Part shown: positions 3,460 to 23,030 of the stretch, one piece after another
How positions within the stretch are numbered: the stretch's first letter is position 1
How the letters are laid out: every line of letters starts with the position of its first letter
NCBI GenBank assembly: GCA_963677105.1
Contig: OY781871.1
Span: forward strand, 840,001-872,000
DNA from: Candidatus Saccharimonadota bacterium
Lineage (GTDB): Bacteria; Patescibacteriota; Gracilibacteria; UBA4473
DNA length: 32,000 nucleotides
Reading direction: 5' to 3'
Program-made: the position numbers and the translations under genes
The notes under the pieces: model-generated
Told to the model about the DNA's origin: nothing
Seen by the model: the letters and a program-made list of their open reading frames with translations, nothing else
Databases searched by the model: none

Positions 3460-3503
3460 GGCGCTGGCGCTTAAAATTTCAAACTACAAATATCAAAGTA
3501 CAG
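3460..3503 (+). repeat. head + (T/A)ACAAA-tail intergenic repeat copy (GGCGCTGGCGCTT AAAATTTCAAACTACAAATATCAAAGTACAG)
   Basis: Starts 2 nt after the TAG stop at 3456-3458. Shares the head/tail architecture of the copies at 8947, 15556, 19940 and elsewhere. Confidence 0.7.
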
Positions 3504-3574
3504 AATGTATAACATAACAACTTGACAAGTTGACAAAAGTAGTGTTAATGTTTATGCGAATTATTTTTAATAAA

Positions 3575-3967
3575 ATGGCTGAAACAACAAAACAGGCAGA
3601 CGGTTCACCAGATAAAATCTCTATAATGGAGAGGGTAATAAATTTGTTAGATAAAATACCTGGAGAGAAAGTGGTAGATAAACCTGAAGAAGAAGTCTTT
3701 ATTAGCGAATCATTAGGTGGTGAAAGAGGAAATGCTCCATATGTTCTTATTTCTGATCAGATGGGCACAGCAAAAGGAAGAATTGAATGGAATTCTATAA
3801 AAGGTGGAGGTAGATGGGAAATAGTAGAAAATGCGACAGGTTATGATGATGCAGCTTTTTACAAAGCAGGATTAGCAAAGGTAAAAGCGCAATTTCCCGA
3901 GTCAAAAATGCAACAGGATTATCCTGCTCCAAAACCGATGGAAAAAGTAGAGTCAGTTATTCAGTAG
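3575..3967 (+). CDS. hypothetical small soluble protein
   Basis: The ORF track starts at TTG 3530. The in-frame ATG at 3575 (MAETTKQ...) is more plausible because tandem TTGACA boxes lie at 3522-3535. A terminator follows the gene. No family recognised. Confidence 0.5.
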   Translation: MAETTKQADGSPDKISIMERVINLLDKIPGEKVVDKPEEEVFISESLGGERGNAPYVLISDQMGTAKGRIEWNSIKGGGRWEIVENATGYDDAAFYKAGLAKVKAQFPESKMQQDYPAPKPMEKVESVIQ

Positions 3968-3987
3968 AAAAGTAGAGTATTAAATGA

Positions 3988-4013
3988 AGACAGAGATTAC
4001 TCTGTCTTTTTTT
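3988..4013 (+). terminator. rho-independent terminator
   Basis: AGACAGAG-ATTA-CTCTGTCT forms a perfect 8-bp stem followed by a T6 run, 21 nt after the stop. Confidence 0.75.
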
Positions 4014-4056
4014 ATATCAAAAATTTACGAAATAATATTCCCGCGCTAGACTGTCG

Positions 4057-4812
4057 ATGATGGAAATATTACATGCCGTGATACTTGGTTTCGTACAAGG
4101 AGTAACAGAATTTCTTCCGGTGAGTTCGAGCGGACACCTTTGGTTGTTGCTCGAATATTGGGATATTCGCTCTCTTTCTCTTGAAGTAGTGCTTCACGCC
4201 GGTTCACTTTTGGCAGTGATTGGATTCTTTTGGAAAGATATTATTCGAATTGTTCGCGAAATGTTTCGTCGAGGAGGGGATTCTCTTGGATGGAAATTAT
4301 TAGTTGCGACTTTGTTGACAGCTCCAACAGGAATTTTAATGCATAATTTTTTCACAGGAGAAATGACGACTCGATTGGTGGGAATAACACTTTTAATCAC
4401 AGCAGGATTGATAGTTGCTGCAGAGGTATTTCGTCCACAGAAAGTTCGAGAGTTTACTTGGAAAATAGCAATACTTCTTGGACTCGTTCAAGGATTAGCC
4501 GTTTTGCCCGGAATTTCTCGTTCAGGATTGACGATTGCCTTTTTGATACTAATTGGTTTACCGAGAAAACAAGCTGCTGAAAATTCTTTTTTGCTGGCGA
4601 TTCCTACGATTTTGGGAGCTCTTTTCTTTTCCATATTAGATAATAATGCTTCAGAAACGCTTATCTTTTTACAAGTAACGACATGGATCGGATTCGCAGT
4701 AAGTGCGGTTGCAGCAGTTGGAGCCATTGCGTGGATGTTGAAATTGATTGAAGGAAAATGGATTTGGTTTGCTCCGTATTGTGCATTGCTTGGTGCGTGG
4801 TTGATTTTTTGA
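4057..4812 (+). CDS. uppP: undecaprenyl-diphosphate phosphatase
   Basis: Hallmark N-terminal motif ILGFVQGVTEFLPVSSSGHL, a second PGISRSG motif, and a polytopic membrane profile. Confidence 0.92.
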   Translation: MMEILHAVILGFVQGVTEFLPVSSSGHLWLLLEYWDIRSLSLEVVLHAGSLLAVIGFFWKDIIRIVREMFRRGGDSLGWKLLVATLLTAPTGILMHNFFTGEMTTRLVGITLLITAGLIVAAEVFRPQKVREFTWKIAILLGLVQGLAVLPGISRSGLTIAFLILIGLPRKQAAENSFLLAIPTILGALFFSILDNNASETLIFLQVTTWIGFAVSAVAAVGAIAWMLKLIEGKWIWFAPYCALLGAWLIF

Positions 4813-4828
4813 GTAAAATATTTATACA

Positions 4829-5440
4829 ATGAAAATAGTGATTGCTACCGGATCTCCAACACGACAAAAAATATTTTCTAATTTAGGAATTTCATTTCTC
4901 ACTCATCCAACAGATATTGATGAAGTATTATTTCCAGCAGAAAATATTGAAAACGCAGTAATTCGTCTTGCACAACGAAAAGCGAAAACTGCATTCAGTG
5001 AATTATCCACAGAAGAAGATGTTTTAGTATTAGCTTTTGATTCGCTCGTAGCATTAGATGATTTAGTTTTTGGAAAACCAAAAAACAAAGAAGAAGCGTT
5101 CGATTGGTTCCAACTATTCAGAGGAAAACGCGTAAAAGCTTTTTCAGGAGTAGGAATCGTGGGAATGAGAAATGGTGAAAAATTTGAAACTTCTTTCCTC
5201 GAAAAATCATGGATTCATTTTCGAAAAAATTCTACGGATGAGCAAATTCGACAGTTTCTTGCGATTGGTGATTGGGAAGGAAAAGCGGGAGGAATTACAG
5301 TTGAAGGTGCTGGAGCGTGGTTGGTGGAAAAAATAGAAGGAGATTTCCCAAATGTGTTGGGAGTTCCTGTGCAGCGAATTGGTGAGAAATTACGAGAACT
5401 GAAGATTGATCCGTTGGAGGTTTTTTATGAAAGGAAATAA
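4829..5440 (+). CDS. maf: Maf-like nucleoside triphosphate pyrophosphatase
   Basis: ATGSPTRQKIFSNLGI, GKAGGITVEG and PNVLGVP motifs. Length is about 200 aa. Confidence 0.85.
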   Translation: MKIVIATGSPTRQKIFSNLGISFLTHPTDIDEVLFPAENIENAVIRLAQRKAKTAFSELSTEEDVLVLAFDSLVALDDLVFGKPKNKEEAFDWFQLFRGKRVKAFSGVGIVGMRNGEKFETSFLEKSWIHFRKNSTDEQIRQFLAIGDWEGKAGGITVEGAGAWLVEKIEGDFPNVLGVPVQRIGEKLRELKIDPLEVFYERK

Positions 5441-7610: not shown

Positions 7611-7640
7611 CTCTTAAAGTCTGCCTTAAAATTAAAAAAA

Positions 7641-8954
7641 ATGAAGTTAAAATATTTTATATTGATCACAATTTTTGTTCCAACTTTTGTTTTTGCTAGT
7701 TTTGGAGACCGATTTAACTCACTGTTGGAAAATTTTTTTTCTGGAGAAGAGCCAGTTTCTGCAGAAGAAGTTTTATCTGTGCCAGAACCTACACCCCCAA
7801 TAATTTCTGGAGAAGGACCAGTTGATGTAAAAAAAGCAATTCTTCAAGAAGAAGATTCATTACAATCAATTGAGGAAGAATTACGTGAAAATACGAACGT
7901 TTTATTTAAAATCAAAGACGAGCATGATTTAGTACAATATCAATTAGAACAATTAGATAGTGATTTGGCGATTGTTCGAGCGATGCAGGAACAGCGAAAT
8001 AAAGCAGTAAAAAAATGGCAAAATGAATTAGATATTATTACACAGAAAAAATCAGAAATAGATGCGTCTGTACGCCATGAGAACAGAGCTCAAAATGAAT
8101 TATTGAGTAAAAAATTTATACAATCATCTTTAATAAAAAATAATGAGGGATTAAATATTTTACAATGGATTTTTTCAGATAAATCTATTTCTCAGCTCAT
8201 TGAAAAACAGCGACGAGATCAGCATATTGAGTCTTCATTACAGAGTCGAGTCAAACAGTTAAAAAGAGATCAAAAACAGATTGCTGAAGAAGAACAACGC
8301 ATTGCAGCAATTCTCCTTCGTGTACAAGAATTAGAGCGGCAATCTGCAAGACAGCAAATGTTATTAGCGGATTTATTATCCGCGAGAGCAAATGTATTAG
8401 CACGACTAGAGTTTTCACAAGGAGAAACAGAAAACGCAATTGAATCTGCGCGACAACAACAAGTTCAGGCAACACTTGTTTTGCAGGACTTAAGAGAAAA
8501 ATTAAATAATGATGTTTCTGTTAAAACACCAATACAATTAACACAAAAATTAGCTTTTCCTTTAAAAATAGAACCAAAGATTACGGCTCATTTTTTGGAT
8601 CCAGAATATAAAAAAATGTTAGGACGAGATCATTTTGGAACAGATTTTTGGGCACCACAAGGAACGGATATATTTGCTCCAATGGATGGTGTGATCAAAA
8701 AAATTGCTCAAAATGGATATGCATATTCATATCTAATTATCGACCATGGAAATGATTTATTTACTCTTTATGGACATATTTCAGATGCAGTTGTAAAGGA
8801 AGGAGAAGCGGTTGTTCGAGGACAAAAAATTGCAGAAACAGGTGGAACACCAGGATTGCCTGGATCTGGATTTTTTACAACTGGAGCACATTTACATTTT
8901 GAAGTGTTTGCGGGAGGACGACATGTTGATGCAGAAAAATGGTTGAGTCGCTAG
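7641..8954 (+). CDS. secreted M23 family metallopeptidase with long N-terminal coiled coil (EnvC-like architecture)
   Basis: ATG 7641 gives the signal peptide MKLKYFILITIFVPTFVFA and avoids overlap with nth. The coiled-coil-rich middle is followed by intact M23 motifs HFGTD (HxxxD) and GAHLHFEV (HxH). Confidence 0.88.
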   Translation: MKLKYFILITIFVPTFVFASFGDRFNSLLENFFSGEEPVSAEEVLSVPEPTPPIISGEGPVDVKKAILQEEDSLQSIEEELRENTNVLFKIKDEHDLVQYQLEQLDSDLAIVRAMQEQRNKAVKKWQNELDIITQKKSEIDASVRHENRAQNELLSKKFIQSSLIKNNEGLNILQWIFSDKSISQLIEKQRRDQHIESSLQSRVKQLKRDQKQIAEEEQRIAAILLRVQELERQSARQQMLLADLLSARANVLARLEFSQGETENAIESARQQQVQATLVLQDLREKLNNDVSVKTPIQLTQKLAFPLKIEPKITAHFLDPEYKKMLGRDHFGTDFWAPQGTDIFAPMDGVIKKIAQNGYAYSYLIIDHGNDLFTLYGHISDAVVKEGEAVVRGQKIAETGGTPGLPGSGFFTTGAHLHFEVFAGGRHVDAEKWLSR

Positions 8955-8990
8955 CGCTCCAAAATTCAAATTACAAACTACAAATTATAA
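8947..8990 (+). repeat. head + tail intergenic repeat copy (GTCGCTAGCGCTCC AAAATTCAAATTACAAACTACAAATTATAA)
   Basis: The palindromic head CGCTAGCG contains the TAG stop codon (8952-8954) of the M23 peptidase gene. The tail consists of ACAAA-type repeats. Confidence 0.75.
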
Positions 8991-9006
8991 ATTTTAAAAA
9001 TTGTTT

Positions 9007-11382: not shown

Positions 11383-11452
11383 TTGCTTTGCTTGAAAGTT
11401 AAATTTTCAAATATAAAAGTTCAAAGGATTTTAGAAGAGGGGGTTGTAGTTA

Positions 11453-11503: not shown

Positions 11504-12178
11504 CTATTCCATCCAACGAGTACTCATATAAGGAGAAGCCATTCGATCGTGGAATCGTCCTTGAGAATATGTAGCACGTTTTGTGATACCAGTATTTCCT
11601 TGGCGTCGTCCAAGATTTCGTACCATGTCACGAGTAGTTAAGTTTGTTGCTCCAACATTCATTTTGAACATATCGCTAAATACTCTTTTTCGTGATACTT
11701 CGTTTTTCATTCCATCTACATTTCCCATTTCCATTGCGTCTTTGTTTCCATATCCAACTCCACCGTCAACATAGTAATTAATAGCAGCTTTTCGGAATGT
11801 TTGTTTGGAATTTACTGCTTGAACACGATTTTTGTCTATAGTTCGAACTCGATCTTTATCTTGTTCCATTTCACCATTTCGAGTCATTTCTGAACCGAGG
11901 TTTCCTGTAACATGATTTTCCTGTTTTAAGTTTTTGAGACGATATTCTTGATTATATGTATTGTAGTAATCACGATCATGTCGTGAGCGATCATACATGT
12001 GTTTATATCGAAGACGTAGTGCATCCAGATAATTACTTTGTCGAGACTGTACAAGCGAAGGGCTTGCTGCGTTGTAGCTTAATTCATCTGCAGTTAAGCT
12101 TGAAGAGTACGCATTTGTAGTACAGATTGTCGTTGCAGAAAACGCAACAGCGAATCCAATTGATAGAAGTTTTTTCAT
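11504..12178 (-). CDS. secreted hypothetical protein
   Basis: 224-aa ORF with signal peptide MKKLLSIGFAVAFSATTICTTNAYS. It is a polar Arg/Asn/Tyr-rich protein with no family recognised. A terminator lies downstream. Confidence 0.6.
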   Translation of the reverse strand: MKKLLSIGFAVAFSATTICTTNAYSSSLTADELSYNAASPSLVQSRQSNYLDALRLRYKHMYDRSRHDRDYYNTYNQEYRLKNLKQENHVTGNLGSEMTRNGEMEQDKDRVRTIDKNRVQAVNSKQTFRKAAINYYVDGGVGYGNKDAMEMGNVDGMKNEVSRKRVFSDMFKMNVGATNLTTRDMVRNLGRRQGNTGITKRATYSQGRFHDRMASPYMSTRWME

Positions 12179-13620: not shown

Positions 13621-13650
13621 AAAATTCCTTCATATTTTATCAGAAAGAAT

Positions 13651-13768
13651 GTCAAAGTACAAAGTTCAAAATCGCTTTGCTCTAAAGGCGCGTTGCTTCA
13701 ATGTACAAAGATTAAATAACAAAGAAGAATCTTTTGTACTTTGCACTTTGATATTTGGAGCGAAACGA
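13651..13768. repeat. cluster of head/tail repeat units in both orientations
   Basis: On the + strand: GTCAAAGTACAAAGTTCAAAATCGCTTTGCTC and GCGCGTTGCTTCAATGTACAAAGATTAAATAACAAAG. On the - strand, directly after the trmD stop: CGTTTCGCTCCAAATATCAAAGTGCAAAGTACAAAAG. The opposed CAAAGTACAAAG tracts could pair. Confidence 0.7.
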
Positions 13769-14428
13769 TTATTTACAGTTGTCGTTTCGCCATTCTTCAA
13801 TTTTTGCATGATGACCAGAAAGAAGTACGGCTGGAACTTTCATGCCACGAAAATCAGAAGGTCTTGTGTAATGAGGATATTCAATTTTTCCATTAAGTTT
13901 TTCACTAAAACTTTCTTCTTGGTGGCTCTCTTCTTTTCCTAAAACTCCAGGTAACAACCTTCCAATAGTATCAATGAAAATTTGTGCAGGAAGCTCTCCT
14001 CCGGTGAGTATAAAATTTCCTACAGATATTTCCTCATCAATAAGTGAATCTCTTACTCTCTGGTCAATTCCTTCGTAATGTCCGCACAATAAAATTATTC
14101 GTGAATACTTTTTTTGATCTGAGTATTGTTCGGCTATTTCTTGATTAAAAACAGTTTTAGACGGCGTTAGAAAAATAACAGGAGCTTCGTCTTTCTCAAG
14201 ATTTTTCACGTGCTCGATACAATCAAATAATGGCTGACAAGACATTACCATTCCTGCTCCGCCACCAAAGGGAACATCGTCTACTTTTCTGTGTTTATTT
14301 TCTGTGAAATCGCGAATGTCATACAGGTTTACCGTAATTTTTTTTTCTTCAATGGCACGTCCAATAATGGATGTTTTTAAAAAGCTTTCAAAAGCTTCTG
14401 GAAAAAGAGTTAAAATTTCAAATTTCAT
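13769..14428 (-). CDS. trmD: tRNA (guanine37-N1)-methyltransferase
   Basis: MKFEILTLFPEAFESFL, DDVPFGGGAGMVM and LLCGHYEGIDQRV motifs. Confidence 0.93.
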   Translation of the reverse strand: MKFEILTLFPEAFESFLKTSIIGRAIEEKKITVNLYDIRDFTENKHRKVDDVPFGGGAGMVMSCQPLFDCIEHVKNLEKDEAPVIFLTPSKTVFNQEIAEQYSDQKKYSRIILLCGHYEGIDQRVRDSLIDEEISVGNFILTGGELPAQIFIDTIGRLLPGVLGKEESHQEESFSEKLNGKIEYPHYTRPSDFRGMKVPAVLLSGHHAKIEEWRNDNCK

Positions 14429-14454
14429 GATCGGATTTTGGCAGAAATGTAATA

Positions 14455-14486
14455 AAACTACAAACTACAAACAGAAAATTACAAAG
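14455..14486 (+). repeat. tail-only repeat copy (AAACTACAAACTACAAACAGAAAATTACAAAG)
   Basis: Lies in the divergent trmD/purC spacer and has the same ACAAA-type periodic motif. Confidence 0.55.
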
Positions 14487-14574
14487 AAGAATTTTATATT
14501 TAAAATTTGAGTATTGAGAATTGAAGTTTTTTTGAATTTATACATAATGTTTTTGTATTTATTAGAATAATAAA

Positions 14575-15555
14575 ATGAACGATCTGATTCAATCGGCACT
14601 TGCAACAACTGTTGATAAAATATCTTTCTCAGAAGCAAAAGAGCATCATAAAGGGAAAGTGCGAGAAAGTTTTATTCTCAATAATAATCAACGTGCAATT
14701 GTGGTTACTGATCGTATTTCTGCGTTTGATTTTGTTCTTGGAACCGTTCCATTCAAAGGACAAGTTTTGAATCAAATGGCAGCGTGGTGGTTTAAAAAAT
14801 TGGACGGAGTAGTTCCACATCATTTAATTGATGTACCAGATCCAAATATTTCTCTGGTAAAAAACGTAACGCCGTTGCCGATAGAAGTGATTGTTCGCGG
14901 ATATTTGACTGGATCTACGAAAACATCGAGTTGGTATGCATATCAGAATTTAGATCGAATGATTTGCGGAATTGAAATGCCAGAAGGAATGAAAAAGAAT
15001 CAGAAATTTGACACACCATTTATTACACCGACTACAAAACCAACGGAAGAAGGCGCTCATGATGAAAATATTTCTTCAGAAGAAGTAGTTTCTCGTGGAT
15101 TTGTTGACGTGGAAACATGGAAAAAAGCACGGGAATATGCGTTGAAAATGTTTGCTTTGGGGCAAAAAATTGCAGCAGAACATGGATTGATTCTCGTAGA
15201 TACAAAATATGAAATGGGAATGACTTCGGATGGAGAATTGATCGTAATTGATGAAGTTCACACGCCGGATAGTTCTCGTTACTGGATTGCGGACACATAT
15301 CAAGAATTATTTGAAGCAGGAAAATCCCCAGAATCACTTAGTAAAGAGTTTGTGCGTTCTGCGTTAGTTGAAAAAGGATACGATATAGATGATCCAAACG
15401 CTGATCCGGCAGAATATTTGAATGACGAATTACGCATTGCTGCGGCGAAGAAATACGTAGAATTGTACGAAAGAGTTACTGGAGAGAAATTCATTTTCCC
15501 AGAAGACATAGATGCAGAGGGACGGATTGAAAAGGCATTATCAAATATCAAATAA
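14575..15555 (+). CDS. purC: phosphoribosylaminoimidazole-succinocarboxamide (SAICAR) synthase, long form
   Basis: GKVRE, DRISAFD, VRGYLTGS, LILVDTKYEMG and DEVHTPDSSRYW motifs. Confidence 0.92.
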   Translation: MNDLIQSALATTVDKISFSEAKEHHKGKVRESFILNNNQRAIVVTDRISAFDFVLGTVPFKGQVLNQMAAWWFKKLDGVVPHHLIDVPDPNISLVKNVTPLPIEVIVRGYLTGSTKTSSWYAYQNLDRMICGIEMPEGMKKNQKFDTPFITPTTKPTEEGAHDENISSEEVVSRGFVDVETWKKAREYALKMFALGQKIAAEHGLILVDTKYEMGMTSDGELIVIDEVHTPDSSRYWIADTYQELFEAGKSPESLSKEFVRSALVEKGYDIDDPNADPAEYLNDELRIAAAKKYVELYERVTGEKFIFPEDIDAEGRIEKALSNIK

Positions 15556-15675
15556 CAAAGTACAAAGTACAAAGTACAAAGAGTCGTTTCGCTCAAAATA
15601 ACAAATTACAAACTACAAAGTAGTCGCTTCGCTCAAAACTACAGTATTCAAACTACAAAGTTCAAAATTTGAATT
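15556..15675 (+). repeat. largest copy of the intergenic repeat family: (ACAAAGT)x~3.9 perfect tandem heptamers, then two head+tail units
   Basis: The array begins around the purC TAA stop: its first A (15555) is the last base of the stop codon (15553-15555), and this feature is drawn from 15556. Sequence: AACAAAGTACAAAGTACAAAGTACAAAGAG TCGTTTCGCTC AAAATAACAAATTACAAACTACAAAG TAGTCGCTTCGCTC AAAACTACAGTATTCAAACTACAAAGTTCAAAA. Confidence 0.85.
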
Positions 15676-15741
15676 GTCTTTGCGAACGAAGTGAAGCAAT
15701 CTTGGATTACTTCGATTTACTTGTAATAATAAAAAGAACTT

Positions 15742-15815
15742 TGTCATTCTGAACTTGATTCAGGATCTATAAAAATAGTTTTTCGAGTAGATTGCGGATC
15801 AAGTCAACAATGACA
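15742..15815. repeat. imperfect palindromic (MITE/REP-like) element
   Basis: Left arm TGTCATTCTGAACTTGATTCAGGATC (15742-15767) against the reverse complement of the right arm GATTGCGGATCAAGTCAACAATGACA (15790-15815) gives 18/26 matches by hand alignment. A related half-copy lies at 19992-20018. An adjacent hairpin-like GAAGCAATC-TTG-GATTACTTC is at about 15700-15725. Confidence 0.55.
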
Positions 15816-15883
15816 GGAGAAAATTTGGTTTTTATAAAAAACATAAAAAGTGTTATTTAGCTAGTCTTTTTTGAATAAAAAAG

Positions 15884-15912
15884 TTGCACTGTGAATAGAG
15901 AATGCTCAGTAT
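15884..15912 (+). promoter_or_regulatory. putative promoter of pilin cassette 1 (TTGCAC-N17-CAGTAT)
   Basis: The same -35-like box, 17-nt spacing and hexamer are conserved upstream of cassettes 1-3. The -10 match to TATAAT is weak, so the assignment is tentative. Confidence 0.35.
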
Positions 15913-15947
15913 GTATGGGTAAAAATAATTTTTAACATCTCCCAAAA

Positions 15948-16679
15948 ATGAGAAATAAAAACCAACAGAAAGGGTTTACCCTTATTGAGTTGCTAGTGGT
16001 GATCGTGATTCTCGGAATCTTATCAACGATCTCAGTAGGAACATTCCGCTCATACTTCGCAAAAGCGCGAGATTCAGAGCGAGTATCGACAGTACAGAAT
16101 CTGGCGATGATGATGAAAGTAGATTCAGGAGGAAGTGGGGATTGTGGAGTTTATAATTATCAAGCAGCGAGTGGTACAACTCAAGACGCAAGTGGTGTTG
16201 AAACTGGTACATGTTCAAATCTAGGCGTATTGGGTAGTCTTTTGAGTAATAATGATTACGCAATGCCAACATCTAAAAATGGATTAAAATATTATTATGG
16301 ATTTAGATTAGGTGAGACAGAAGGGGATAATGAATTTTTTATTATGATTGGTGCAGAAGAAGAGAATCCACAGAATGGAAAAGCATTGGCTAGTGCTGAT
16401 GCTGGAGATCCTTATGAGTTTGCGTTTGTAGACGGAACTACAGAGGGAATTACAGAAGTAACAGCAAATTGTAATCCTGATAATACGACAGGAGCTCCTG
16501 TCTGTACGGCGAACGTTTGGAATGTTATAGAAATTCTAGATGGAGGAGCATTTGCGGGAACGCCAGCTTGTACGGTTAGTTCAAATAACACAACATTGCC
16601 TTGTGTGTGTGAGGGAGGAGCAACATGTAGTGGAGCGAATTCTTACTGTCAAATTGGTGGTACTTGTACAACGCCATAA
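15948..16679 (+). CDS. type IV pilin-like protein (prepilin N-terminal cleavage/methylation domain), paralog 1, Cys-rich C-terminal module
   Basis: MRNKNQQKG|FTLIELLVVIVILGIL is a class III signal (Gly-1, Phe+1, Glu+5). The core DSGGSGDC..YNY, NNDYAMP..KNGL.YYYGF, TEGDNEFF..GAEEENPQNGK and FVDGTTEGI is shared with the other three paralogs. Total of 10 Cys. Confidence 0.9.
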   Translation: MRNKNQQKGFTLIELLVVIVILGILSTISVGTFRSYFAKARDSERVSTVQNLAMMMKVDSGGSGDCGVYNYQAASGTTQDASGVETGTCSNLGVLGSLLSNNDYAMPTSKNGLKYYYGFRLGETEGDNEFFIMIGAEEENPQNGKALASADAGDPYEFAFVDGTTEGITEVTANCNPDNTTGAPVCTANVWNVIEILDGGAFAGTPACTVSSNNTTLPCVCEGGATCSGANSYCQIGGTCTTP

Positions 16680-16700
16680 GTGTTTTAGAAATTTAAATAA

Positions 16701-16731
16701 AAAAGCTTCTCTGAAAGGGGAAGTTTTTTTT
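16701..16731 (+). terminator. rho-independent terminator of cassette 1
   Basis: AAAAGCTTCTC-TGAAAG-GGGAAGTTTTTTTT forms a stem with one G.U pair followed by a T8 run. Confidence 0.65.
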
Positions 16732-16764
16732 GTGAAAAAAAAGTATTATCTAAATAAAAAAAAG

Positions 16765-16793
16765 TTGCAAAAAAGGATGTAAGATATCAGTAT
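16765..16793 (+). promoter_or_regulatory. putative promoter of pilin cassette 2 (TTGCAA-N17-CAGTAT)
   Basis: Conserved spacing and sequence with cassettes 1 and 3. The downstream leader GGGTAAAAATAATTTTTAA(T/C)ATCTCCCAAAATG is nearly identical to that of cassette 1. Confidence 0.35.
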
Positions 16794-16827
16794 ACACGGG
16801 TAAAAATAATTTTTAATATCTCCCAAA

Positions 16828-17430
16828 ATGAGAAACAAATACCAACAGAAAGGGTTTACCCTTATTGAGTTGCTAGTGGTGATCGTGATTCTCGGAATCT
16901 TATCAACGATCTCAGTAGGAACATTTCGATCGTACTTTGCAAAGGCACGAGATTCAGAGCGAGTATCGACGGTACAGAATATTGCGATGATGATAAAGGT
17001 TGATTCAGGAGGAAGTGGAGACTGTAAGGTATATAATTATGGAAATGGGTTAAAACATACGAGTGGAGATACTATAACTTGTAATGGAGTAGATACATCA
17101 ACATTAAAAACTCTTTTGGAAAACAATGATTATTCAATGCCAAGTGCAAAAAATGGATTAACTTATTATTACGGTTTTAAAATTGGTGCTACAGAAGGAG
17201 ATAATGAATTTTTTGTGGCAGTTGGAGCAGAAGAAGAACATCCACAAAACGGAAAAGAAGAGACTGGAGGTGGAGAATTTATTTTTGTAGATGGAACGAC
17301 AGAAGGAATTGCGGCGGCATTGGCAGGAGATGCTACAATAGATTGTGATGTTGCAGCAGGTGGTGTGATCACTTGTAATGCAACTAATTGGGAATTGTTT
17401 ACGATAGATGATGACGCAGAGCTTTTGTAG
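16828..17430 (+). CDS. type IV pilin-like protein, paralog 2
   Basis: MRNKYQQKG|FTLIELLVV... has the same N-terminus and core blocks. It is 200 aa with 4 Cys, and its C-terminal third is divergent. Confidence 0.9.
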   Translation: MRNKYQQKGFTLIELLVVIVILGILSTISVGTFRSYFAKARDSERVSTVQNIAMMIKVDSGGSGDCKVYNYGNGLKHTSGDTITCNGVDTSTLKTLLENNDYSMPSAKNGLTYYYGFKIGATEGDNEFFVAVGAEEEHPQNGKEETGGGEFIFVDGTTEGIAAALAGDATIDCDVAAGGVITCNATNWELFTIDDDAELL

Positions 17431-17451
17431 TAATGGAACAATTTAAGAAAG

Positions 17452-17478
17452 AACTTCCTCGAAAGGGGAAGTTTTTTT
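17452..17478 (+). terminator. rho-independent terminator of cassette 2
   Basis: AACTTCCTC-GAAA-GGGGAAGTT followed by T7. The hairpin sequence is conserved with the cassette 3 terminator. Confidence 0.75.
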
Positions 17479-17563
17479 CAGATAAAGGAGAAATAGTGGA
17501 TTAAATTAATTTATAAAAAAACATAAAAATTACATTTTTGCTATCTTTTTTTGAATAAAAAAT

Positions 17564-17592
17564 TTGCACTAAGGATAGAGAATGTTCAGTAT
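17564..17592 (+). promoter_or_regulatory. putative promoter of pilin cassette 3 (TTGCAC-N17-CAGTAT)
   Basis: The roughly 120-bp upstream region (TATAAAAAAACATAAAAA...TTTTTTGAATAAAAAATTTGCACTAAGGATAGAGAATGTTCAGTATGTAT) is a close copy of 15833-15915. Confidence 0.35.
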
Positions 17593-17625
17593 GTATCAGT
17601 AAAAATACTTTATAACATTTTCAAA

Positions 17626-18249
17626 ATGAGAAATAAAAACCAACAGAAGGGGTTTACCCTTATCGAGTTGCTGGTGGTGATCGTGATTCTCGGAATCTTG
17701 TCAACGATCTCAGTAGGAACATTCCGATCGTACTTCGCAAAAGCACGAGATTCAGAGCGAGTATCAACGGTACAAAATTTAGCGATGATGATGAAAGTAG
17801 ACTCTGGAGGACATGGAGATTGTACAGTGTATAATTATAAAGGGAATGGTGCAGGGTGTGCAACAACAGGTGTGGGTGTATTAGATACTGTACTGAAAGC
17901 GTTATTGACAAATAATGATTACTCAATGCCCGAAGCGAAAAACGGATTAGTTTATCATTATGCATTTTATGAAGGAGATACGGAAGGAGATAATGAATTT
18001 TTTGTTATGGTTGGGGCAGAAGAAGATAATCCACAAAATGGAAAACAATCTGGTGCAGGAGAATATATTTTTGTAGATGGAACAACAAAGGGAATTGCTT
18101 CGGCTACAAAAGGCGAAGCAACTGCTACGGGAACGGATCCAGGAGGTTGTACTATTGTGAGTGGGGCACCAACGTGTTTTACTAATTGGTCAACATATAC
18201 TATTAATTCAGATGGCGAATTGACGCTTCTCGTGGCAGCAACAACATAG
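17626..18249 (+). CDS. type IV pilin-like protein, paralog 3
   Basis: True start is ATG 17626 (MRNKNQQKG|FTLIELL), by homology with paralogs 1 and 2. The track's TTG 17551 reads through the promoter region. 207 aa with 4 Cys. Confidence 0.9.
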   Translation: MRNKNQQKGFTLIELLVVIVILGILSTISVGTFRSYFAKARDSERVSTVQNLAMMMKVDSGGHGDCTVYNYKGNGAGCATTGVGVLDTVLKALLTNNDYSMPEAKNGLVYHYAFYEGDTEGDNEFFVMVGAEEDNPQNGKQSGAGEYIFVDGTTKGIASATKGEATATGTDPGGCTIVSGAPTCFTNWSTYTINSDGELTLLVAATT

Positions 18250-18263
18250 AATATTATTTAATA

Positions 18264-18296
18264 AAAAAAACTTCCTCGAAAGAGGAAGTTTTTTTA
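18264..18296 (+). terminator. rho-independent terminator of cassette 3
   Basis: AAAAAAAACTTCCTC-GAAA-GAGGAAGTTTTTTT forms a perfect 9-bp stem with flanking A-run and T-run. Confidence 0.8.
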
Positions 18297-18335
18297 TTAG
18301 GAATAAAATTAAACACAGGTTCTAAAATATGTAAG

Positions 18336-18364
18336 TTGTAATTTTACTTATTTGTATTTATAGT
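18336..18364 (+). promoter_or_regulatory. putative promoter of pilin cassette 4 (TTGTAA-N17-TATAGT)
   Basis: Good sigma70-like spacing and a good -10 box. The sequence is unrelated to the promoters of cassettes 1-3. Confidence 0.45.
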
Positions 18365-18386
18365 GTGAAAGTATAAAAACATTCAG

Positions 18387-19085
18387 ATGAAACACGTATT
18401 AAAAAAATCAGGTTTCACGCTAATAGAATTACTTGTTGTAATTGTTATTTTAGGAATCTTATCAACGATATCCGTTGGTACATTCCGATCATATTTCGCG
18501 AAAGCTCGAGATGCGGAACGAGTATCAGCGGTTCAGAATATGGCGATGATGATTAAAGTAGATTCTGGTGGAGCAGGAGATTGTACAGTTTATAATTATA
18601 CAGACGATACTATTTTTCCAGATGGTTCAACTTGTCCAGATGCTTCATATTTGGCTTTTGGTCAGTTATTGAATAGTAATGATTTTAAAATGCCGAATTC
18701 AAAAAATGGATTAAACTACCATTATGCATTTTTGCCGGGAGCGACAGAAGGAGATAATGATTTCTTTATCGCCGTTGGAGCAGAAGAAAGTAATGCTGCT
18801 AATGGAATATTACAAGATGCTGGTACGGGGTTTTCTATTTTTGCAGATGGAACATCAGCTGGAATAGATATTGCACCTACTTGTATATGGACGAATGGAA
18901 ATTTAGTTAGTTGTGCGAATGTTGTAGAGGGAGCAGTAACAAGAGTATGGGAATTTCAAGCATTAACTGCAGGACTAAATGGTTGTTGGATTGGTAATTG
19001 TGTGGGTTGTACGGGAACCACAACGCAGTATTGTGTAGATGTTGGATGTAGTACAAGTGGTACTGATTGTGTAGATCCGGTGTAA
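18387..19085 (+). CDS. type IV pilin-like protein, paralog 4 (divergent leader, Cys-rich C-terminal module)
   Basis: MKHVLKKSG|FTLIELLVVIVILGILSTISVGTFRSYFAKARD shares the same 34 aa as paralog 1 but with different codons. The core blocks are conserved (DSGGAGDCTVYNY, KNGLNYHYAF, TEGDNDFF). Total of 10 Cys. No terminator follows, and its TAA stop overlaps the next ATG (TAATG). Confidence 0.9.
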   Translation: MKHVLKKSGFTLIELLVVIVILGILSTISVGTFRSYFAKARDAERVSAVQNMAMMIKVDSGGAGDCTVYNYTDDTIFPDGSTCPDASYLAFGQLLNSNDFKMPNSKNGLNYHYAFLPGATEGDNDFFIAVGAEESNAANGILQDAGTGFSIFADGTSAGIDIAPTCIWTNGNLVSCANVVEGAVTRVWEFQALTAGLNGCWIGNCVGCTGTTTQYCVDVGCSTSGTDCVDPV

Positions 19086-19939
19086 TGTCAAAAAAATGGA
19101 TTTGGTTGCGAGTAAGTCAAATATTATTAGACACATTAATTGTGTGGGGAATGTTTCTGCTTGCATACTTTGTGCGAGTACATTGGATATTTTCAACAGA
19201 TTTCCCATTTACATTATTTGCATTGCTTTCTGGTGCAGCAACGCTTGTATGGATCGCGTTTCTCGCGTTTGTAAAAGCATATCGACTTCCACCACGTTCA
19301 GGAGTGCGTTCGTGGTATGATATCGTTTTAATTATCGCTGGAGGAATTATTGCCGTTGGATTTTTAATTGTTTCGTACTTCTTTCCCCGCGAAATATTAT
19401 TTTCTCGTTTAATTGGAGTATATGCGTTCTTATTCGGTGCATTGTGGCTTATTTGTTCACAAAAGATATTTCGATTTTTTCTGGGACGATCAAAGAAAGC
19501 CGGAAAAGGATATAAAACATTGATTATTGGTGCGAATCGCGTTTCAGAGCAATTTGTTTCTCGTGTAAAAGCAGATTCGTTTGCACCATTTCAAATTATG
19601 GGAGTGATTGATCCGTATGGTTTAGCGAAAAAATTTAAAGGAGCTTTATTACTCGGGAAACTTGATCAATTAGAAAAAGTTTGTGAACGAGAAAAAATTA
19701 CGGCGATTGTGCAATGTGACGCATTTGAGCACACTCTTTCGCTTGTTTCGTTTTGTGAAGAACATGATATCAAGTTTCAATTTTTGCCTTCATTGAGAGG
19801 TGTTTTTGAGGATAATTTACGATTACGTGAGATTGCTGGAGTTCGTGTAGGATCACTCGTTCAGCGAAATTATTCAGGAATTAAAAGAACAAAATTTCAT
19901 TTAATTGATTGGCTTTTGGGGCAGGTTTTAGATATTTAG
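19085..19939 (+). CDS. N-terminal fragment of a WbaP/EpsB-type polyprenyl-phosphate glycosyl-1-phosphate transferase (membrane + Rossmann-like domain; catalytic Bac_transf domain absent); possible pseudogene
   Basis: Four N-terminal TM helices are followed by YKTLIIGANRVSEQFVSRV...IMGVIDP...LLGKLDQLEKVCEREKITAIVQCD, which is the CoA_binding_3-like region of large PGTs. The ORF ends at ...GIKRTKFHLIDWLLGQVLDI*, where the KRxxDxxxxxxxL start of the catalytic domain normally begins. No continuation is found downstream in any frame. Confidence 0.6.
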   Translation: MSKKWIWLRVSQILLDTLIVWGMFLLAYFVRVHWIFSTDFPFTLFALLSGAATLVWIAFLAFVKAYRLPPRSGVRSWYDIVLIIAGGIIAVGFLIVSYFFPREILFSRLIGVYAFLFGALWLICSQKIFRFFLGRSKKAGKGYKTLIIGANRVSEQFVSRVKADSFAPFQIMGVIDPYGLAKKFKGALLLGKLDQLEKVCEREKITAIVQCDAFEHTLSLVSFCEEHDIKFQFLPSLRGVFEDNLRLREIAGVRVGSLVQRNYSGIKRTKFHLIDWLLGQVLDI

Positions 19940-19990
19940 TCGCTAGCGTTTCAATGTACAAATTACAAAGTGCAAAGTACAAAACTTTTC
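19940..19990 (+). repeat. head + tail repeat copy (TCGCTAGCGTT TCAATGTACAAATTACAAAGTGCAAAGTACAAAAC); its last 27 nt form the left arm of a perfect inverted repeat
   Basis: Starts 1 nt after the TAG stop at 19937-19939. 19964-19990, TACAAAGTGCAAAGTACAAAACTTTTC, is the exact reverse complement of 20511-20537. Confidence 0.85.
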
Positions 19991-20114
19991 ATGTCATTTC
20001 AAACTTGATTTGGAATATATTTGAAAAGTGAAAAATTTATTAAAATTTTTCCTGAAGAAAGTTTCTTTATGAAACTTGTTTTGCAATAAATATGTCATCT
20101 TTAATTTTTTAAAC

Positions 20115-20486
20115 ATGACTGATTCTTCAAAAAACATTCTCATTCAAAAAACATACGTTTTTGCGCTAAGAATAGTGAAACTTTCTCAATTTTTAATACA
20201 AGAAAAAAAAGAATATATCCTTTCAAAACAAATACTTCGTTCAGGAACTTCAATTGGAGCAAACACAGAAGAGTCTATGGGAGGACAATCTAAAAAAGAT
20301 TTTTTTTCAAAATTATCGATTGCATACAAAGAAGCTCGTGAAACAAAATATTGGCTGCATCTTTTACAAGACTCAAATTATATTTCATTTAATCAAGCCT
20401 CTTCAATTTTAAATGATTGTGAAGAAATTTTGAAAATTTTAGGGAAAACTCTTTCAACCATTCGCAAAAAACAGTCAATAAAATAA
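20115..20486 (+). CDS. four-helix-bundle protein of the 23S rRNA intervening-sequence protein / Avd-like family
   Basis: KTYVFALRIVKL....SKQILRSGTSIGANTEE......DFFSKLSIAYKEARETKYWLHLL is the characteristic pattern of the TIGR02436/PF05635-type family. ATG 20115 is preferred to the track's TTG 20076. Confidence 0.85.
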   Translation: MTDSSKNILIQKTYVFALRIVKLSQFLIQEKKEYILSKQILRSGTSIGANTEESMGGQSKKDFFSKLSIAYKEARETKYWLHLLQDSNYISFNQASSILNDCEEILKILGKTLSTIRKKQSIK

Positions 20487-20510
20487 AAATTTAACTAGAT
20501 TCCAAGACAG

Positions 20511-20545
20511 GAAAAGTTTTGTACTTTGCACTTTGTACACTGATA
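20511..20545 (-). repeat. repeat-family tail copy in reverse orientation; right arm of the 27-bp inverted repeat
   Basis: GAAAAGTTTTGTACTTTGCACTTTGTA (20511-20537) is the exact reverse complement of 19964-19990. It lies 14 nt downstream of the gyrB stop on the - strand. Confidence 0.85.
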
Positions 20546-20551
20546 TCTGAT

Positions 20552-22471
20552 TCAGATGTCTAGGTCTTGAACCTCAGAAGCGTGAGATTGGATAAATTTT
20601 CGACGAGGAAGTACATCATCTCCCATCAACACTTTAAATACATGATCAGCGCGTTCTGCGTCTGAAATGGTTACTTGTAAAAGAGTTCGATTTTCAGGAT
20701 TCATTGTAGTTTCCCAGAGTTGATCTGCATTCATTTCTCCCAAACCTTTATAACGTTGAATACTATCTCCTTTTATATCATGTTCAGTTGCAATTTTATC
20801 TCGTTCTTCTTCTGTTAGAGCGTACCAAACTTGTTTTCCTTTCGCTAGTTTAAACAAAGGTGGTTGTGCGATATAAATATGACCCGCTTCTACAAGCTGA
20901 GGAAAGTGACGGTAGAGGAATGTAAGCAATAATGTTCGAATATGAGCACCATCAACATCAGCGTCGGTCATGATCACAACTTTATGATATCGAAGTTTAT
21001 CAATATTGAATTCTTGTCCAATAGCCGTACCAAGAGCAATAATAAGGTTTTTAACCTCAGTATTTGCAAGCATTTTTTCGAGTCGACAGTTTTCTGTATT
21101 AAGAATTTTACCTCGTAAAGGCAAAATAGCTTGTGTACGACGATCTCGACCTTGTTTAGCAGTTCCACCAGCAGAATCTCCCTCAACAATGTATACTTCA
21201 CATTCAGAAGGATTTTTTGAACTACAGTCAGAAAGTTTTCCGGGAAGAGTAAGTCCTTCCAGTGCACCTTTTCGAATAACTGTATCACGAGCTGCACGAG
21301 CCGCAAGTCGAGCACGAGTTGCTAATGCGCATTTATTGATAATAGATTTCGCGTCATCTGGATTTTCTGCCAAATATTCCGTAAGTTTTTCTGAAACTAT
21401 TCGATCCACGGATCCTCGAACAGCAGAATTTCCCAACTTTGATTTTGTTTGTCCTTCAAATTGTGGTTCAGGAATTTTAACACTCACAACAGCAGTCAAT
21501 CCTTCATGAACATCATCATTTGTAAAATTGGGATCTTTGTCTTTTAGCAGACTATTATCACGGGCATATTTATTTAAAACACGAGTAAGTGCTGTATTAA
21601 ATCCTGTAACATGAGTTCCGCCTTCAATAGTTTGAATATTATTAGCAAAAGATTGAAGTGTCTCTCGAAACTGCATTGTGTATTGTAATGCAATTTCTAC
21701 AGAAATATTTTCTCGTTCTTCGTTTATAGCAATAACAGGAGAAATAGCGTCTTCTCCATTATTTATGTGACGAACAAAGGATTCAATTCCTCCTTCAAAA
21801 TAAAACTGACATACCTGTGGAATCCATTTTTTTTCTTCATCATTCCGTTCATCTCTAAATGTAATAGTTACACCACGAGTGAGGTATGCTTGCTGTCGTA
21901 TTCGTTTTTTAATAGCATCAAATTCAAAATCTAGTGTTTCAAAAATGGCAGGATCTGGCCAAAAATGAACTAATGTTCCTTGACGTGTTTGTTCTCCGAT
22001 TTTAGCCAAAGGTTCTGCTGGTGCTCCACTTTCAAATGCGACAAAGTATTTTCCTCCATCACGATCGACCGTTACTTCTGTACGGATAGAAAGAGCATTT
22101 ACAACACTTACTCCAACTCCATGAAGTCCTCCTGATACTTTATATCCACCACCACCAAATTTTCCACCAGCGTGAAGAACTGTCAAAACAGTTTCCACAG
22201 CAGAGATTCCAGTTTGTTTATGTTTTTCTACAGGAATTCCACGTCCATTATCTGCAACAGAACAACTTCCGTCTTCATGAATTGTTACTTCAATATGAGA
22301 ACAGTGTCCCGCCATTGCTTCATCAATTGCATTGTCTAAAACTTCCCAAATTAAGTGGTGTAAACCACGTACATCAGTAGATCCGATATACATTCCTGGT
22401 CGCTTTCGAACTGGATCAAGACCTTCGAGTACTTGAATCGAACTGGCATCGTATGTTGATTGTGTGTTCAT
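20552..22471 (-). CDS. gyrB: DNA gyrase subunit B
   Basis: Full-length GHKL ATPase (LEGLDPVRKRPGMYIGST, HHLIWEVLDNAIDE, GLHGVG), Toprim (EVYIVEGDSAGG, IMTDADVDGAHI) and a C-terminal tail. ATG 22471 (MNTQ...) is preferred to the TTG at 22483. Confidence 0.95.
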   Translation of the reverse strand: MNTQSTYDASSIQVLEGLDPVRKRPGMYIGSTDVRGLHHLIWEVLDNAIDEAMAGHCSHIEVTIHEDGSCSVADNGRGIPVEKHKQTGISAVETVLTVLHAGGKFGGGGYKVSGGLHGVGVSVVNALSIRTEVTVDRDGGKYFVAFESGAPAEPLAKIGEQTRQGTLVHFWPDPAIFETLDFEFDAIKKRIRQQAYLTRGVTITFRDERNDEEKKWIPQVCQFYFEGGIESFVRHINNGEDAISPVIAINEERENISVEIALQYTMQFRETLQSFANNIQTIEGGTHVTGFNTALTRVLNKYARDNSLLKDKDPNFTNDDVHEGLTAVVSVKIPEPQFEGQTKSKLGNSAVRGSVDRIVSEKLTEYLAENPDDAKSIINKCALATRARLAARAARDTVIRKGALEGLTLPGKLSDCSSKNPSECEVYIVEGDSAGGTAKQGRDRRTQAILPLRGKILNTENCRLEKMLANTEVKNLIIALGTAIGQEFNIDKLRYHKVVIMTDADVDGAHIRTLLLTFLYRHFPQLVEAGHIYIAQPPLFKLAKGKQVWYALTEEERDKIATEHDIKGDSIQRYKGLGEMNADQLWETTMNPENRTLLQVTISDAERADHVFKVLMGDDVLPRRKFIQSHASEVQDLDI

Positions 22472-22540
22472 ATGGGGTTCCAAAAATTGTGTCGCGAGAA
22501 TTGTACCGGTTTTAGATGTTTGAGCAAGAGAAAATAGGCA

Positions 22541-22582
22541 CTTCGTTTCAAATTACAAAGAGTAAAGAACAAAGTGCAAAAT
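22541..22582 (+). repeat. head + tail repeat copy (CTTCGTTTC AAATTACAAAGAGTAAAGAACAAAGTGCAAAA)
   Basis: Located in the gyrB/ybaB divergent spacer. Confidence 0.6.
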
Positions 22583-22607
22583 ATTGTTAAAATCTGCGCT
22601 TAATACA

Positions 22608-22646
22608 TTGTTATTTGTACTTTGGAGTGAAGCGAATTTCGCTTGG
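22608..22646 (-). repeat. head + tail repeat copy, reverse orientation
   Basis: The reverse complement reads CCAAGCGAAATTCGCTTCACTCCAAAGTACAAATAACAA. The head contains the AAGCGA-ATT-TCGCTT hairpin. Confidence 0.6.
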
Positions 22647-22697
22647 CAAAAAATATTTCATAAGTACACTTTCATTGAATTTTTAACTTTCAATAAA

Positions 22698-22997
22698 ATG
22701 GGAATGATGGGACAAATGGGCGATATGTATAAGCTTCAAAAAGAAGCAAAGAAAATAAAAAAAGAGCTTGGAAAAATCCATGTATTTGCTGAATCAGCAG
22801 GTGTAAAAGTTACCGTTAATTGTGAGCAAGAACTTCTTTCAGTTGAGTTTACAGATGAAACAGTTTTAACAGATTCTAAAAAATTAGAAAAAGCGATCCT
22901 AGATGCATCTAATCGTGCTATGAAAAAATCACAACAAGTTGCTGCAGAAAAGATGAAAGCAGTAATGGGTGGATTTCCTGGAATGGGAGGGAAGTAA
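22698..22997 (+). CDS. ybaB: YbaB/EbfC family nucleoid-associated DNA-binding protein
   Basis: From ATG 22698: MGMMGQMGDMYKLQKEAKKIKKELGKIHVFAESAGVKVTVNCEQELLSVEF...MGGFPGMGG, which is the typical YbaB pattern at about 99 aa. The track's upstream extension crosses repeat sequence. Confidence 0.85.
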   Translation: MGMMGQMGDMYKLQKEAKKIKKELGKIHVFAESAGVKVTVNCEQELLSVEFTDETVLTDSKKLEKAILDASNRAMKKSQQVAAEKMKAVMGGFPGMGGK

Positions 22998-23030
22998 TCA
23001 AATTACAAATTTCAAAGTACAAAGTTCAAA
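22998..23030 (+). repeat. tail-only repeat copy (TCAAATTACAAATTTCAAAGTACAAAGTTCAAA)
   Basis: Begins on the nucleotide after the ybaB TAA stop. Confidence 0.65.

Follow-up and report, generated by a model that had tools for sequence, protein, structure and literature searches.

Heptamer arrays between genes of a Gracilibacteria genome as probable arms of a PF05635 four-helix-bundle cassette

The window analysed here, a stretch of 32,000 nucleotides (positions 840,001 to 872,000 of contig OY781871.1, assembly GCA_963677105.1), carries ordinary housekeeping genes, including those for an M23 peptidase, pyrK, trmD, purC, gyrB, ybaB and mltG, which are neighboured at about 10 intergenic sites by CAAAnTn heptamers, 3–6 in tandem and often led by a GC-rich head. 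One inverted pair of such arrays encloses a gene of the PF05635 four-helix-bundle family, and we consider it probable that the repeats are, mechanism included, the arms and gene-less derivatives of this type of cassette. The GyrB of the window shares 72–76% identity with proteins that bear the names Candidatus Gracilibacteria or Peregrinibacteria, and the host belongs, judged from sequence, to the Gracilibacteria/Peregrinibacteria group of the Candidate Phyla Radiation (CPR). Because TGA ends several intact genes and the long open reading frames (ORFs) are unbroken, the genetic code is standard, and the alternative code of relatives of the clade, in which UGA specifies glycine, was ruled out. 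No Shine–Dalgarno sequence was found upstream of any start codon in the window.

A preliminary description, made from the letters of the stretch, had listed a dispersed intergenic repeat family, and all eleven of its ranges contain what was described, including the degenerate copy behind pyrK, the TAG inside one head and the TAG directly ahead of another. The heptamer pattern CAAANNNCAAANNNCAAA has 18 matches at 9 loci, compared with 0.05 expected from whole-window shuffles, and in the intergenic DNA alone (3182 nt, GC 28.7%) it has 16 matches, compared with 0.01 expected and a maximum of 1 in 500 intergenic-only shuffles. Accordingly, the family is not due to AT-rich base composition, the explanation that the description had held open. 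Inside genes of the window the pattern has no match, bar the purC array, which starts in the last five codons. Tandem Repeats Finder located period-7 arrays at five sites (8962–8998, 14455–14472, 15555–15581, 19952–19983 and 22999–23031), bearing out the 7-nt period, together with a 40-nt super-repeat at 15562–15661. An arm consists of an optional GC-rich head of 11–13 nt, outermost and against the gene boundary, followed by 3–6 heptamers. The heads (GGCGCTGGCGCTT, GTCGCTAGCGCTCC, GTCGTTTCGCTC, GTCGCTTCGCTC, TCGCTAGCGTT and TCGTTTCGCTCC) are built of two GC-rich units in the form (G/T)CGCT, 0–1 nt, (T/G)CGCT(C/T); they are not palindromic as a rule, and the palindromic head described earlier, CGCTAGCG, is present in just two copies. 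Arms are found singly at four sites, as inverted pairs without a gene at four others, one of them the largest copy, and in one case as an inverted pair around a gene (Table 1), with copy lengths from 33 to about 160 nt. Several sites that had been taken for single units are therefore inverted pairs, the reverse arms of the headless pair and of the largest copy having been overlooked.

Table 1. Arms, arm pairs and the cassette gene in the window
Feature	Position	Strand	Stop junction	Composition and setting
Single arm	3460–3503	+	TAG (3456), 1 nt, head	Head GGCGCTGGCGCTT (3460–3472), ~4 heptamers (CAAACTA CAAATAT CAAAGTA); follows gene 2736–3458
Single arm	8947–8998	+	M23 peptidase TAG (8952–8954) within head	Head GTCGCTAGCGCTCC; 5–6 heptamers; spacer filled to next gene
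Degenerate single arm	11383–11430	+	pyrK TAG (11380) abuts degenerate head	Head-like TTGCTTTGCTTG, then decayed heptamers
Gene-less inverted pair	13651–13771	.	trmD TAA (13769–13771, minus) abuts head	Minus arm: head 13758–13768, heptamers 13733–13757
Plus-strand arm of this pair	13653–13726	+		Two heads
Headless inverted pair	14455–14523	.		Divergent trmD/purC region; forward arm 14455–14486, reverse arm 14496–14523
Largest copy	15539–15700	+	purC TAA (15553) within array	Starts in last 5 purC codons; 3.9 perfect ACAAAGT units followed by a 40-nt unit (head + heptamers) repeated 2.5 times in tandem; ends in short reverse arm with head-like reverse complement (~15669–15700)
Cassette left arm	19940–19995	+	CoA_binding_3 gene TAG (19937) abuts head	Head TCGCTAGCGTT, then CAATGTA CAAATTA CAAAGTG CAAAGTA
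Four-helix-bundle gene	20112–20486	+		TIGR02436/PF05635; family motif RSGTSIGANTEE
Cassette right arm	20506–20551	-	16 nt past gyrB TGA	Reverse complement of left arm; in gyrB sense
Gene-less inverted pair	22536–22646	.		Heads at both outer ends (GGCACTTCGTTT ... GGAGTGAAGCGAA); divergent gyrB/ybaB region
Headless single arm	22998–23033	+	TAA (22995) abuts array	5 heptamers; fills ybaB–mltG spacer

The copies lie at gene boundaries. The element begins 0–1 nt past the stop codon, or contains it, in seven of the eight post-gene copies, the exception being that of gyrB, and the CAAA strand corresponds to the sense of the gene in all eight, including two behind minus-strand genes. Since sense orientation is held at plus- and minus-strand genes alike, it follows transcription rather than the replication strand, and a nucleoid or replication role, one of those initially offered, is unsupported. 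The coupling to stop codons stands for the post-gene copies and does not extend to three sites in 5' or divergent regions (14455–14523, 22536–22646 and the plus-strand half of 13651–13726). The sense strand of the arrays is composed of A (53%), C (15%) and G (8%), with a C:G ratio of 51:28 (~1.8). Predicted folds of single arms are not more stable than those of shuffled sequences (z = -0.5 to +1.1), and paired arms without a gene form stems of -25 to -27 kcal/mol (-26.6, z = -1.8, at 13651–13771; -25.1, z = -1.4, at 22536–22646), the head lying outside the stem as judged by reading the sequence.

Gene 3' ends in the window carry either a classic hairpin with T-run (about 10) or an array (8), rarely both. 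This division, together with the C:G ratio, the lack of structure in the tracts and the almost G-free versions in relatives, would fit arrays acting as 3'-end signals for genes without hairpin terminators, either as Rho-utilisation-like C-over-G tracts or as mRNA stability elements, and paired arms could block 3' exonucleases. Nevertheless, compared with Rho-utilisation sites (~70–80 nt, C-rich, G-poor, unstructured, regular YC), the tracts are short, mostly 30–45 nt, and many of their units have AC or GC rather than YC; units such as GTGCAAA and GTACAAA have no YC, those of other lineages are G-rich (GGGAATC, AGGTCGG), many arrays lie inside operons whose downstream genes need transcription, and the same element occurs in antisense ahead of start codons. 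We regard this reading as very unlikely. The earlier proposal of a 3'-untranslated-region RNA element is half right: arrays do follow genes, but in operons they take up the entire gap from stop to start codon, and the head is also found elsewhere in antisense, directly against start codons. The view that the units are not terminator-like holds, in that none of the 14 terminator-like sites in the window overlaps an array and single arms fold like shuffles; likewise, contiguous 7-nt units are unrelated to CRISPR arrays, whose repeats measure 24–48 nt and alternate with unique spacers of about that length. In Rfam searches tRNA-Val alone reached the gathering threshold, and a scan of 13500–23100 at E <= 1 gave just weak terminator-hairpin hits; no tRNA, CRISPR or known RNA family matched the arrays, and promoter-like hits were at shuffle level. 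A Bacteroidetes-type promoter was rejected by eye, as the reverse complement of the array must read TAnnTTTG and the spacing is off by 1 nt.

The ability of opposed copies to pair, noted in the preliminary description, is borne out at 19937–20554, where arms of 32 nt are 97% complementary (19964–19995 and 20506–20537) and prove to be the ends of one gene cassette; the gene inside had been overlooked, as had the membership of the repeats in a cross-phylum heptamer class. The ORF matches TIGR02436 at 110.2 bits (cut-off 24) and PDB entry 2RLD with E = 1.2e-30, and PF05635 is annotated in its orthologues. This family, named '23S rRNA intervening-sequence protein' or S23p, is homologous to Avd and has been described as functionally uncharacterised. 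The cassette architecture is the same as that of the S23p-encoding intervening sequences of rRNA genes, known from Coxiella and Leptospira and long suspected to be selfish or mobile, which share with it the gene family, heptamers directly upstream of the ORF and terminal inverted repeats forming a stem of ~28–32 bp (PMC4990558). For instance, in the Coxiella intervening sequence 2–3 GACAGAT units and a GACAGAA lie just ahead of the S23p ATG, the terminal stem measures 28 bp, the first repeat is the site of RNase III cleavage and the copy number varies among strains (PMC4990558). By contrast, the window contains no rRNA gene, and its cassette resides between protein-coding genes (the CoA_binding_3 gene and gyrB) rather than in 23S helix 45; RNase III cutting, known for the Coxiella intervening sequence, is predicted for the window cassette by analogy; and many gene-less arms are dispersed in the window genome. 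Avd of diversity-generating retroelements belongs to the same four-helix-bundle superfamily (PMC10053308), but neither a reverse transcriptase nor a template/variable repeat pair lies near the window cassette.

Comparison with five syntenic loci (L121, L123, L125, L126 and L127), of which L121 and L127 have GyrB proteins 89% and 88% identical to that of the window, revealed the cassette at the same place in these two (L121, 11918–12549; L127, 11918–12535), with protein identities of 85% and 79%, respectively, and with heads abutting the stop codons of both convergent neighbours (TAG/TCGCTA...). The orientation of the cassette in L121 is opposite to that in the window and L127; therefore, the segment between the arms has flipped at least once, and because the flanking genes and the outward-facing heads are unchanged, the flip is an inversion between the inverted arms, which we infer to have been caused by recombination in the arms. 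At this site the cassette is absent from L123, L125 and L126.

The search of related genomes also uncovered arrays at the same sites in L121, L127, L123 and L126, namely the ybaB–mltG spacer and the regions past the trmD, CoA_binding_3 and gyrB stop codons, and the headless pair has its counterpart at the same place in L121. Between relatives, the site and the 7-nt period are kept while the unit and the copy number change. In the ybaB–mltG spacer, the unit is CAAAGTA in the window, CAAACTA in L121, CAAACTT/CAATCTT in L123 and ATTTCGG in L126, and L127 has a heptamer array there as well; a second L126 site, behind the CoA_binding_3 gene, carries ATTT(C/T)CG. Thus, each genome has its own preferred unit, common to several of its sites. 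Other small elements occupy some of these spacers. A ParE-like toxin/antitoxin pair between purC and trmD (L123, 17220–17730; L126, 15614–16124) replaces the headless inverted pair of the window and L121, and behind purC, where the window has its largest array, L121 carries a DUF559 (endonuclease-like) gene (17374–18001) flanked by G/C-rich inverted repeats (AACGCCCCC ... GGGGGCGTT).

Among the roles originally offered, a miniature inverted-repeat transposable element (MITE) targeting stop-proximal sites comes closest. A classical non-autonomous transposon of the MITE or repetitive extragenic palindromic (REP) kind, with a transposase elsewhere and a stop-like target (TA or TAG), would explain why heads abut TA/G, TGA/ and TAA/ and why inverted pairs resemble terminal inverted repeats; moreover, an argJ–argB spacer of Opitutales is polymorphic, being filled in L138 and L214 and empty in L215, whose ArgJ is 93% identical. 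However, the copies have no fixed length, single ones have one defined end and no recognizable second, no target duplication was found at the boundaries, internal repeat copy number varies freely, no transposase is encoded in the window and the single unit has no palindromic REP-type hairpin. Orthologous sites that carry arrays with different units fit a simple MITE poorly, and we consider a transposon of this kind quite unlikely. REP sequences and bacterial interspersed mosaic elements (BIMEs), BOX, Correia and other MITEs are likewise short post-gene intergenic repeats found in both orientations and able to pair, and BOX is similarly modular, with variable internal copy number; the window family differs in being strictly 7-nt periodic and in having no unit hairpin, no terminal inverted repeats with target duplication and no known transposase partner.

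The link between PF05635 genes and heptamer arrays extends well beyond this clade. A scan of species-representative genomes for CAAAGTNCAAAGTNCAAA matched at least 120 loci, including ones from Acidobacteriota, Verrucomicrobiota, Bacteroidota, Cyanobacteria, several CPR groups, Planctomycetota and Clostridia, and at 4 of the 120 loci listed the array and a PF05635 gene are no more than ~100 nt apart. The gene is placed directly between inverted period-7 arrays in Parcubacteria, Stahlbacteria, Akkermansia and metagenome contig L167, and an acidobacterial locus, L061, has a clear arm downstream of the gene only. Overall, inverted period-7 arrays with locus-specific units flank PF05635 genes in 19 of the 21 loci inspected. 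For an objective measure we used plasmid homologues of the four-helix-bundle protein, found by tblastn with the protein alone (32 records), 12 of which, from Cyanobacteria, Bacteroidota, Spirochaetota, Bacillota and Chloroflexota, were chosen for taxonomic spread before any flanks had been seen. By eye, the ORF is immediately bordered on either side by inverted heptamer arrays in all 12; a lag-7 score detects arrays on both flanks of 10 of the 12, compared with none of 58 neighbouring genes used as controls, and an inverted 14-mer match of at least 13 is found for 9 of the 12 and for 3 of the 58. The units are diverse and include ACCAGTT/ACTGGTC, TAGTGAT/ATCACTA, CAATTCG/CGAATTG, AGGTCGG/CCGACCT, AATCCCC and AATCGTA, GATGAAG/CTTCATC and TTTTAGA/TCTAAAA. 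The plasmid cassettes sit within operons, between cas2 and cas1, drmD and MmeI, hsdS and hsdR, or an RND adaptor and its permease, and their arms often give the stop codon of the upstream gene and extend to the downstream ATG. In Chondrinema, TAACTGA-type units are the arms of a four-helix-bundle cassette.

Two of these loci display features of their own. In L061 (1102–2776), four CAAAGTT arrays in the same orientation, ~100 nt apart, and two reversed ones lie beside the four-helix-bundle gene, a layout that amounts to a higher-order array of arrays. The cassette of a plasmid of Nostoc sp. ATCC 53789 (L204, 428–1324), with (CAATTCG)4 arms, is neighboured by a 77-aa 'DNA cytosine methyltransferase' fragment and a 92-aa hypothetical ORF, so that a gene may have been split.

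The head, too, is found across lineages. Queried with the head and three CAA-heptamers, metagenomes yielded GTCGCT-NN-GCTCC followed by heptamers in 73 contigs with GC contents of 0.33–0.69, compared with fewer than ~10 expected by chance according to our own estimate; the 7-nt period continues past the query in nearly all of them, with units such as CAATTTC, CAATTAC, CAACGCT, CAATGTC and CAAGATC. In viral contigs, neither the head followed by heptamers nor a close relative of the four-helix-bundle protein was found. In the 54 testable metagenome cases, the head abuts the stop codon of a long sense ORF (at least 100 codons) in 10, as TA/GTCGCT, TGA/GTCGCT or TAA/GTCGCT, compared with 16 of 1620 control positions, and an antisense start codon in 14, compared with 108 of 1620. 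The antisense-start cases include the spacers rpmJ–rpsM, rpsK–rpsD and that of mraZ. One of the 73 contigs derives from Opitutales (Verrucomicrobiota), in which the argJ–argB spacer holds a palindrome of head and heptamers in two genomes and headless arrays in a third. Several stop-to-start spacers of Opitutales arg operons are heptamer arrays or palindromes, with one unit per genome across spacers (L213, 1377–1501 and 2727–2848; L214, 1462–1501; L215, 3721–3760).

Such arrangements bring to the fore a strong rival explanation, compatible with the cassette reading and not exclusive of it, namely, that the arrays are cis-acting RNA platforms on which a host RNA-binding protein (S1, cold-shock or CsrA-like) or the ribosome binds the heptamers and starts or tunes translation of the next gene, the cassette gene merely hitch-hiking. 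The BOGUAY repeats, mostly forward and a few nt from start codons without ribosome-binding sites (PMC4679880), are in line with this possibility. So are the three co-directional stop-to-start spacers of the window that are filled by arrays in a genome devoid of Shine–Dalgarno sequences, the A-rich, G-poor and unstructured sense strand, the recurrence of the arrangement in ribosomal-protein and arg operons (rpmJ–rpsM, rpsK–rpsD, argC-J-B) and the persistence of sites while units change. Yet copies at convergent ends (pyrK, gyrB and the CoA_binding_3 gene) are followed by no gene whose translation they could affect, the head stands on the stop-codon side, 30–50 nt from the next start, units that change from genome to genome speak against S1 or another conserved host factor, and the inverted arms around PF05635 genes are not explained by the platform alone. 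As the full account of the repeats it is possible, though we lean against it.

Reports of intergenic tandem heptamers go back to 1990, to the short tandemly repeated repetitive (STRR) sequences of cyanobacteria. In 2007, heptamers were reportedly shown to be over-represented in many bacteria. By unit, location and site conservation, the window arrays are heptameric intergenic tandem repeats of the STRR/TAACTGA class. The TAACTGA direct repeats of marine Beggiatoaceae, Cyanobacteria and Bacteroidetes, for which a function in translation or a mobile protein that binds the repeats has been proposed (MacGregor 2015, PMC4679880), resemble them closely, being tandem heptamers (2–6 copies), almost all intergenic, co-oriented with genes, at most a few nt from a gene boundary and in some cases overlapping the upstream stop codon, in contexts poor in ribosome-binding sites, in ribosomal-protein operons and without RNA structure (PMC4679880). 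The window family differs in its unit, CAAAGTA, whose sense frames are free of stop codons, in its conserved GC-rich head, which serves for anchoring and often gives the stop, and in its CPR host; the TAACTGA paper mentions neither PF05635 genes nor inverted arms (PMC4679880). The STRR and other heptameric simple sequence repeats (Calothrix STRR; Mrazek 2007; Xanthomonas GGGAATC, Nostoc GGGGAYT; PMC4692102) have the same period of 7, likewise lie between genes, recur at the same sites of related species with variable length and sequence, and occasionally form inverted pairs, but they have been treated as slippage products or G-quadruplex formers, and no head, codon anchoring or associated gene has been described for them; those of Xanthomonas and Nostoc were studied and no function was found (PMC4692102).

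Slippage also offers a plain account of the window arrays, as simple-sequence repeats that arise and drift in any non-coding DNA because the polymerase slips preferentially by 7-nt units, with neither mobility nor partner protein nor function. It is consistent with the units and copy numbers that differ between close relatives, with single arms devoid of predicted structure and with the reported over-representation of heptameric repeats in many bacteria, for which slippage was proposed as the cause (PMC4692102; PMC4679880). It leaves unexplained, however, the non-repetitive 13-nt head conserved from CPR to Verrucomicrobiota, the anchoring within 0–1 nt of stop and start codons, the uniform sense orientation, the single preferred unit at many sites of a genome and the inverted flanking of one gene family, and we consider it unlikely. 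Intergenic heptamer arrays as such are thus already known, whereas the conserved head and the general PF05635 link are new within the literature searched: an incomplete search recovered no paper that ties PF05635 genes in general to heptamer arms or describes the head, and searching by sequence string returned nothing relevant.

We therefore favour, as the probable explanation, the origin of the repeats as arms of PF05635 cassettes and derivatives that have no gene. Inverted arms on a transcript would form a long stem, which, by analogy with the intervening sequences, RNase III would cut, freeing the cassette mRNA or separating the cistrons. Head and array can supply the stop codon of the upstream gene, and single arms, being unstructured, A-rich and G-poor, may be tolerated or exploited as stop-to-start spacers in a host without Shine–Dalgarno sequences. 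The four-helix-bundle protein is a candidate for the factor that recognizes the arrays in trans, which is the least certain step.

Several observations weigh against this explanation. Arrays outnumber the gene 10–30 fold (1 of ~10 sites here, 4 of the 120 listed loci), so most of them exist without a gene nearby, and at orthologous sites they persist in relatives that have no cassette there; they could be native spacers of which the cassette simply makes use. On the array side there is neither a target-site duplication nor a defined outer end. The head is absent among the 120 CAAAGTN-array loci listed from other phyla, and head and heptamers are therefore separable modules, the head not being universal. 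A crude ORF-end orientation test on these cross-phylum loci was confounded by the stop-free heptamers and by spurious ORFs in high-GC genomes. In Coxiella, S23p itself is thought by the authors to be probably not expressed (PMC4990558). Finally, two homologues in unverified phage records (L217 and L218) have no heptamer arms. Upstream of these two genes (L217, ~2270–2480; L218, ~2290–2490) we observed 8-mers (GTGATATT or TGAAATA) ~20 nt apart, and the upstream regions also contain the head-like strings GAGCGAAAGCGAG and GAGCAAAGCGAG.

A broader proposition can be put forward only tentatively and is, in our judgement, rather doubtful as a whole: PF05635 proteins may be sequence-specific binders of heptamer arrays, perhaps with one ring subunit per heptamer, and their genes may travel as array-armed cassettes; the excess of intergenic heptamers (STRR, TAACTGA, GGGAATC, CAAAGTA) would then be the footprint of selfish cassettes, whose arms were left behind, copied or homogenized, the preferred unit of a genome would reflect its resident protein, and, as a second module shared across phyla, the head GTCGCT-NN-GCTCC would dock each element exactly at stop and start codons. 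Genes of the uncharacterised PF05635 family are very widespread, occurring inside rRNA genes, CRISPR-cas loci and other operons, and their link to the arrays may help to account for the abundance of 7-base repeats in bacterial intergenic DNA. If the proposition is true, the heptamer puzzle and the PF05635 puzzle both become directly testable, by confronting a protein with its own flanking array, and the cassette would represent a compact, low-damage way for a selfish gene to enter operons, its arms supplying a stop for the upstream gene, a translation start of its own and a processable stem. In annotating CPR genomes, head and array can be used to recognize where genes truly end and start.

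Some neighbours of the repeats deserve mention in their own right. The CoA_binding_3 gene ahead of the cassette (19067–19939) encodes 290 aa, with CoA_binding_3 as the sole domain, and the protein matches only the N-terminal part (positions 1–266 of 445) of sugar-phosphate transferases. Truncation by the cassette was considered and rejected, since cassette-free relatives have proteins of 263–289 aa; given this similarity in length, the protein is a conserved short form. Upstream, at 15836–19085, lie four tandem paralogues of a pilin-like protein with an N-terminal methylation motif, whose upstream regions are nearly identical, as are their hairpin terminators; in relatives the copy number is 2–5. 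Finally, a second dispersed sequence type, made up of short hairpins, for example TTGTCATTCTGAACTTGATTCAGGATC, and of strings like AGATTGCGGATCAAGTCAACAATGACA or GAGATTTCTCGACTTTGCTCGAAATGACAA, sits at ~15745–15830 of the window, in L123 (~16000–16030, minus strand), in L126 (~11990–12110), and in L144 and L002, and recurs beside heptamer arrays in unrelated contigs.

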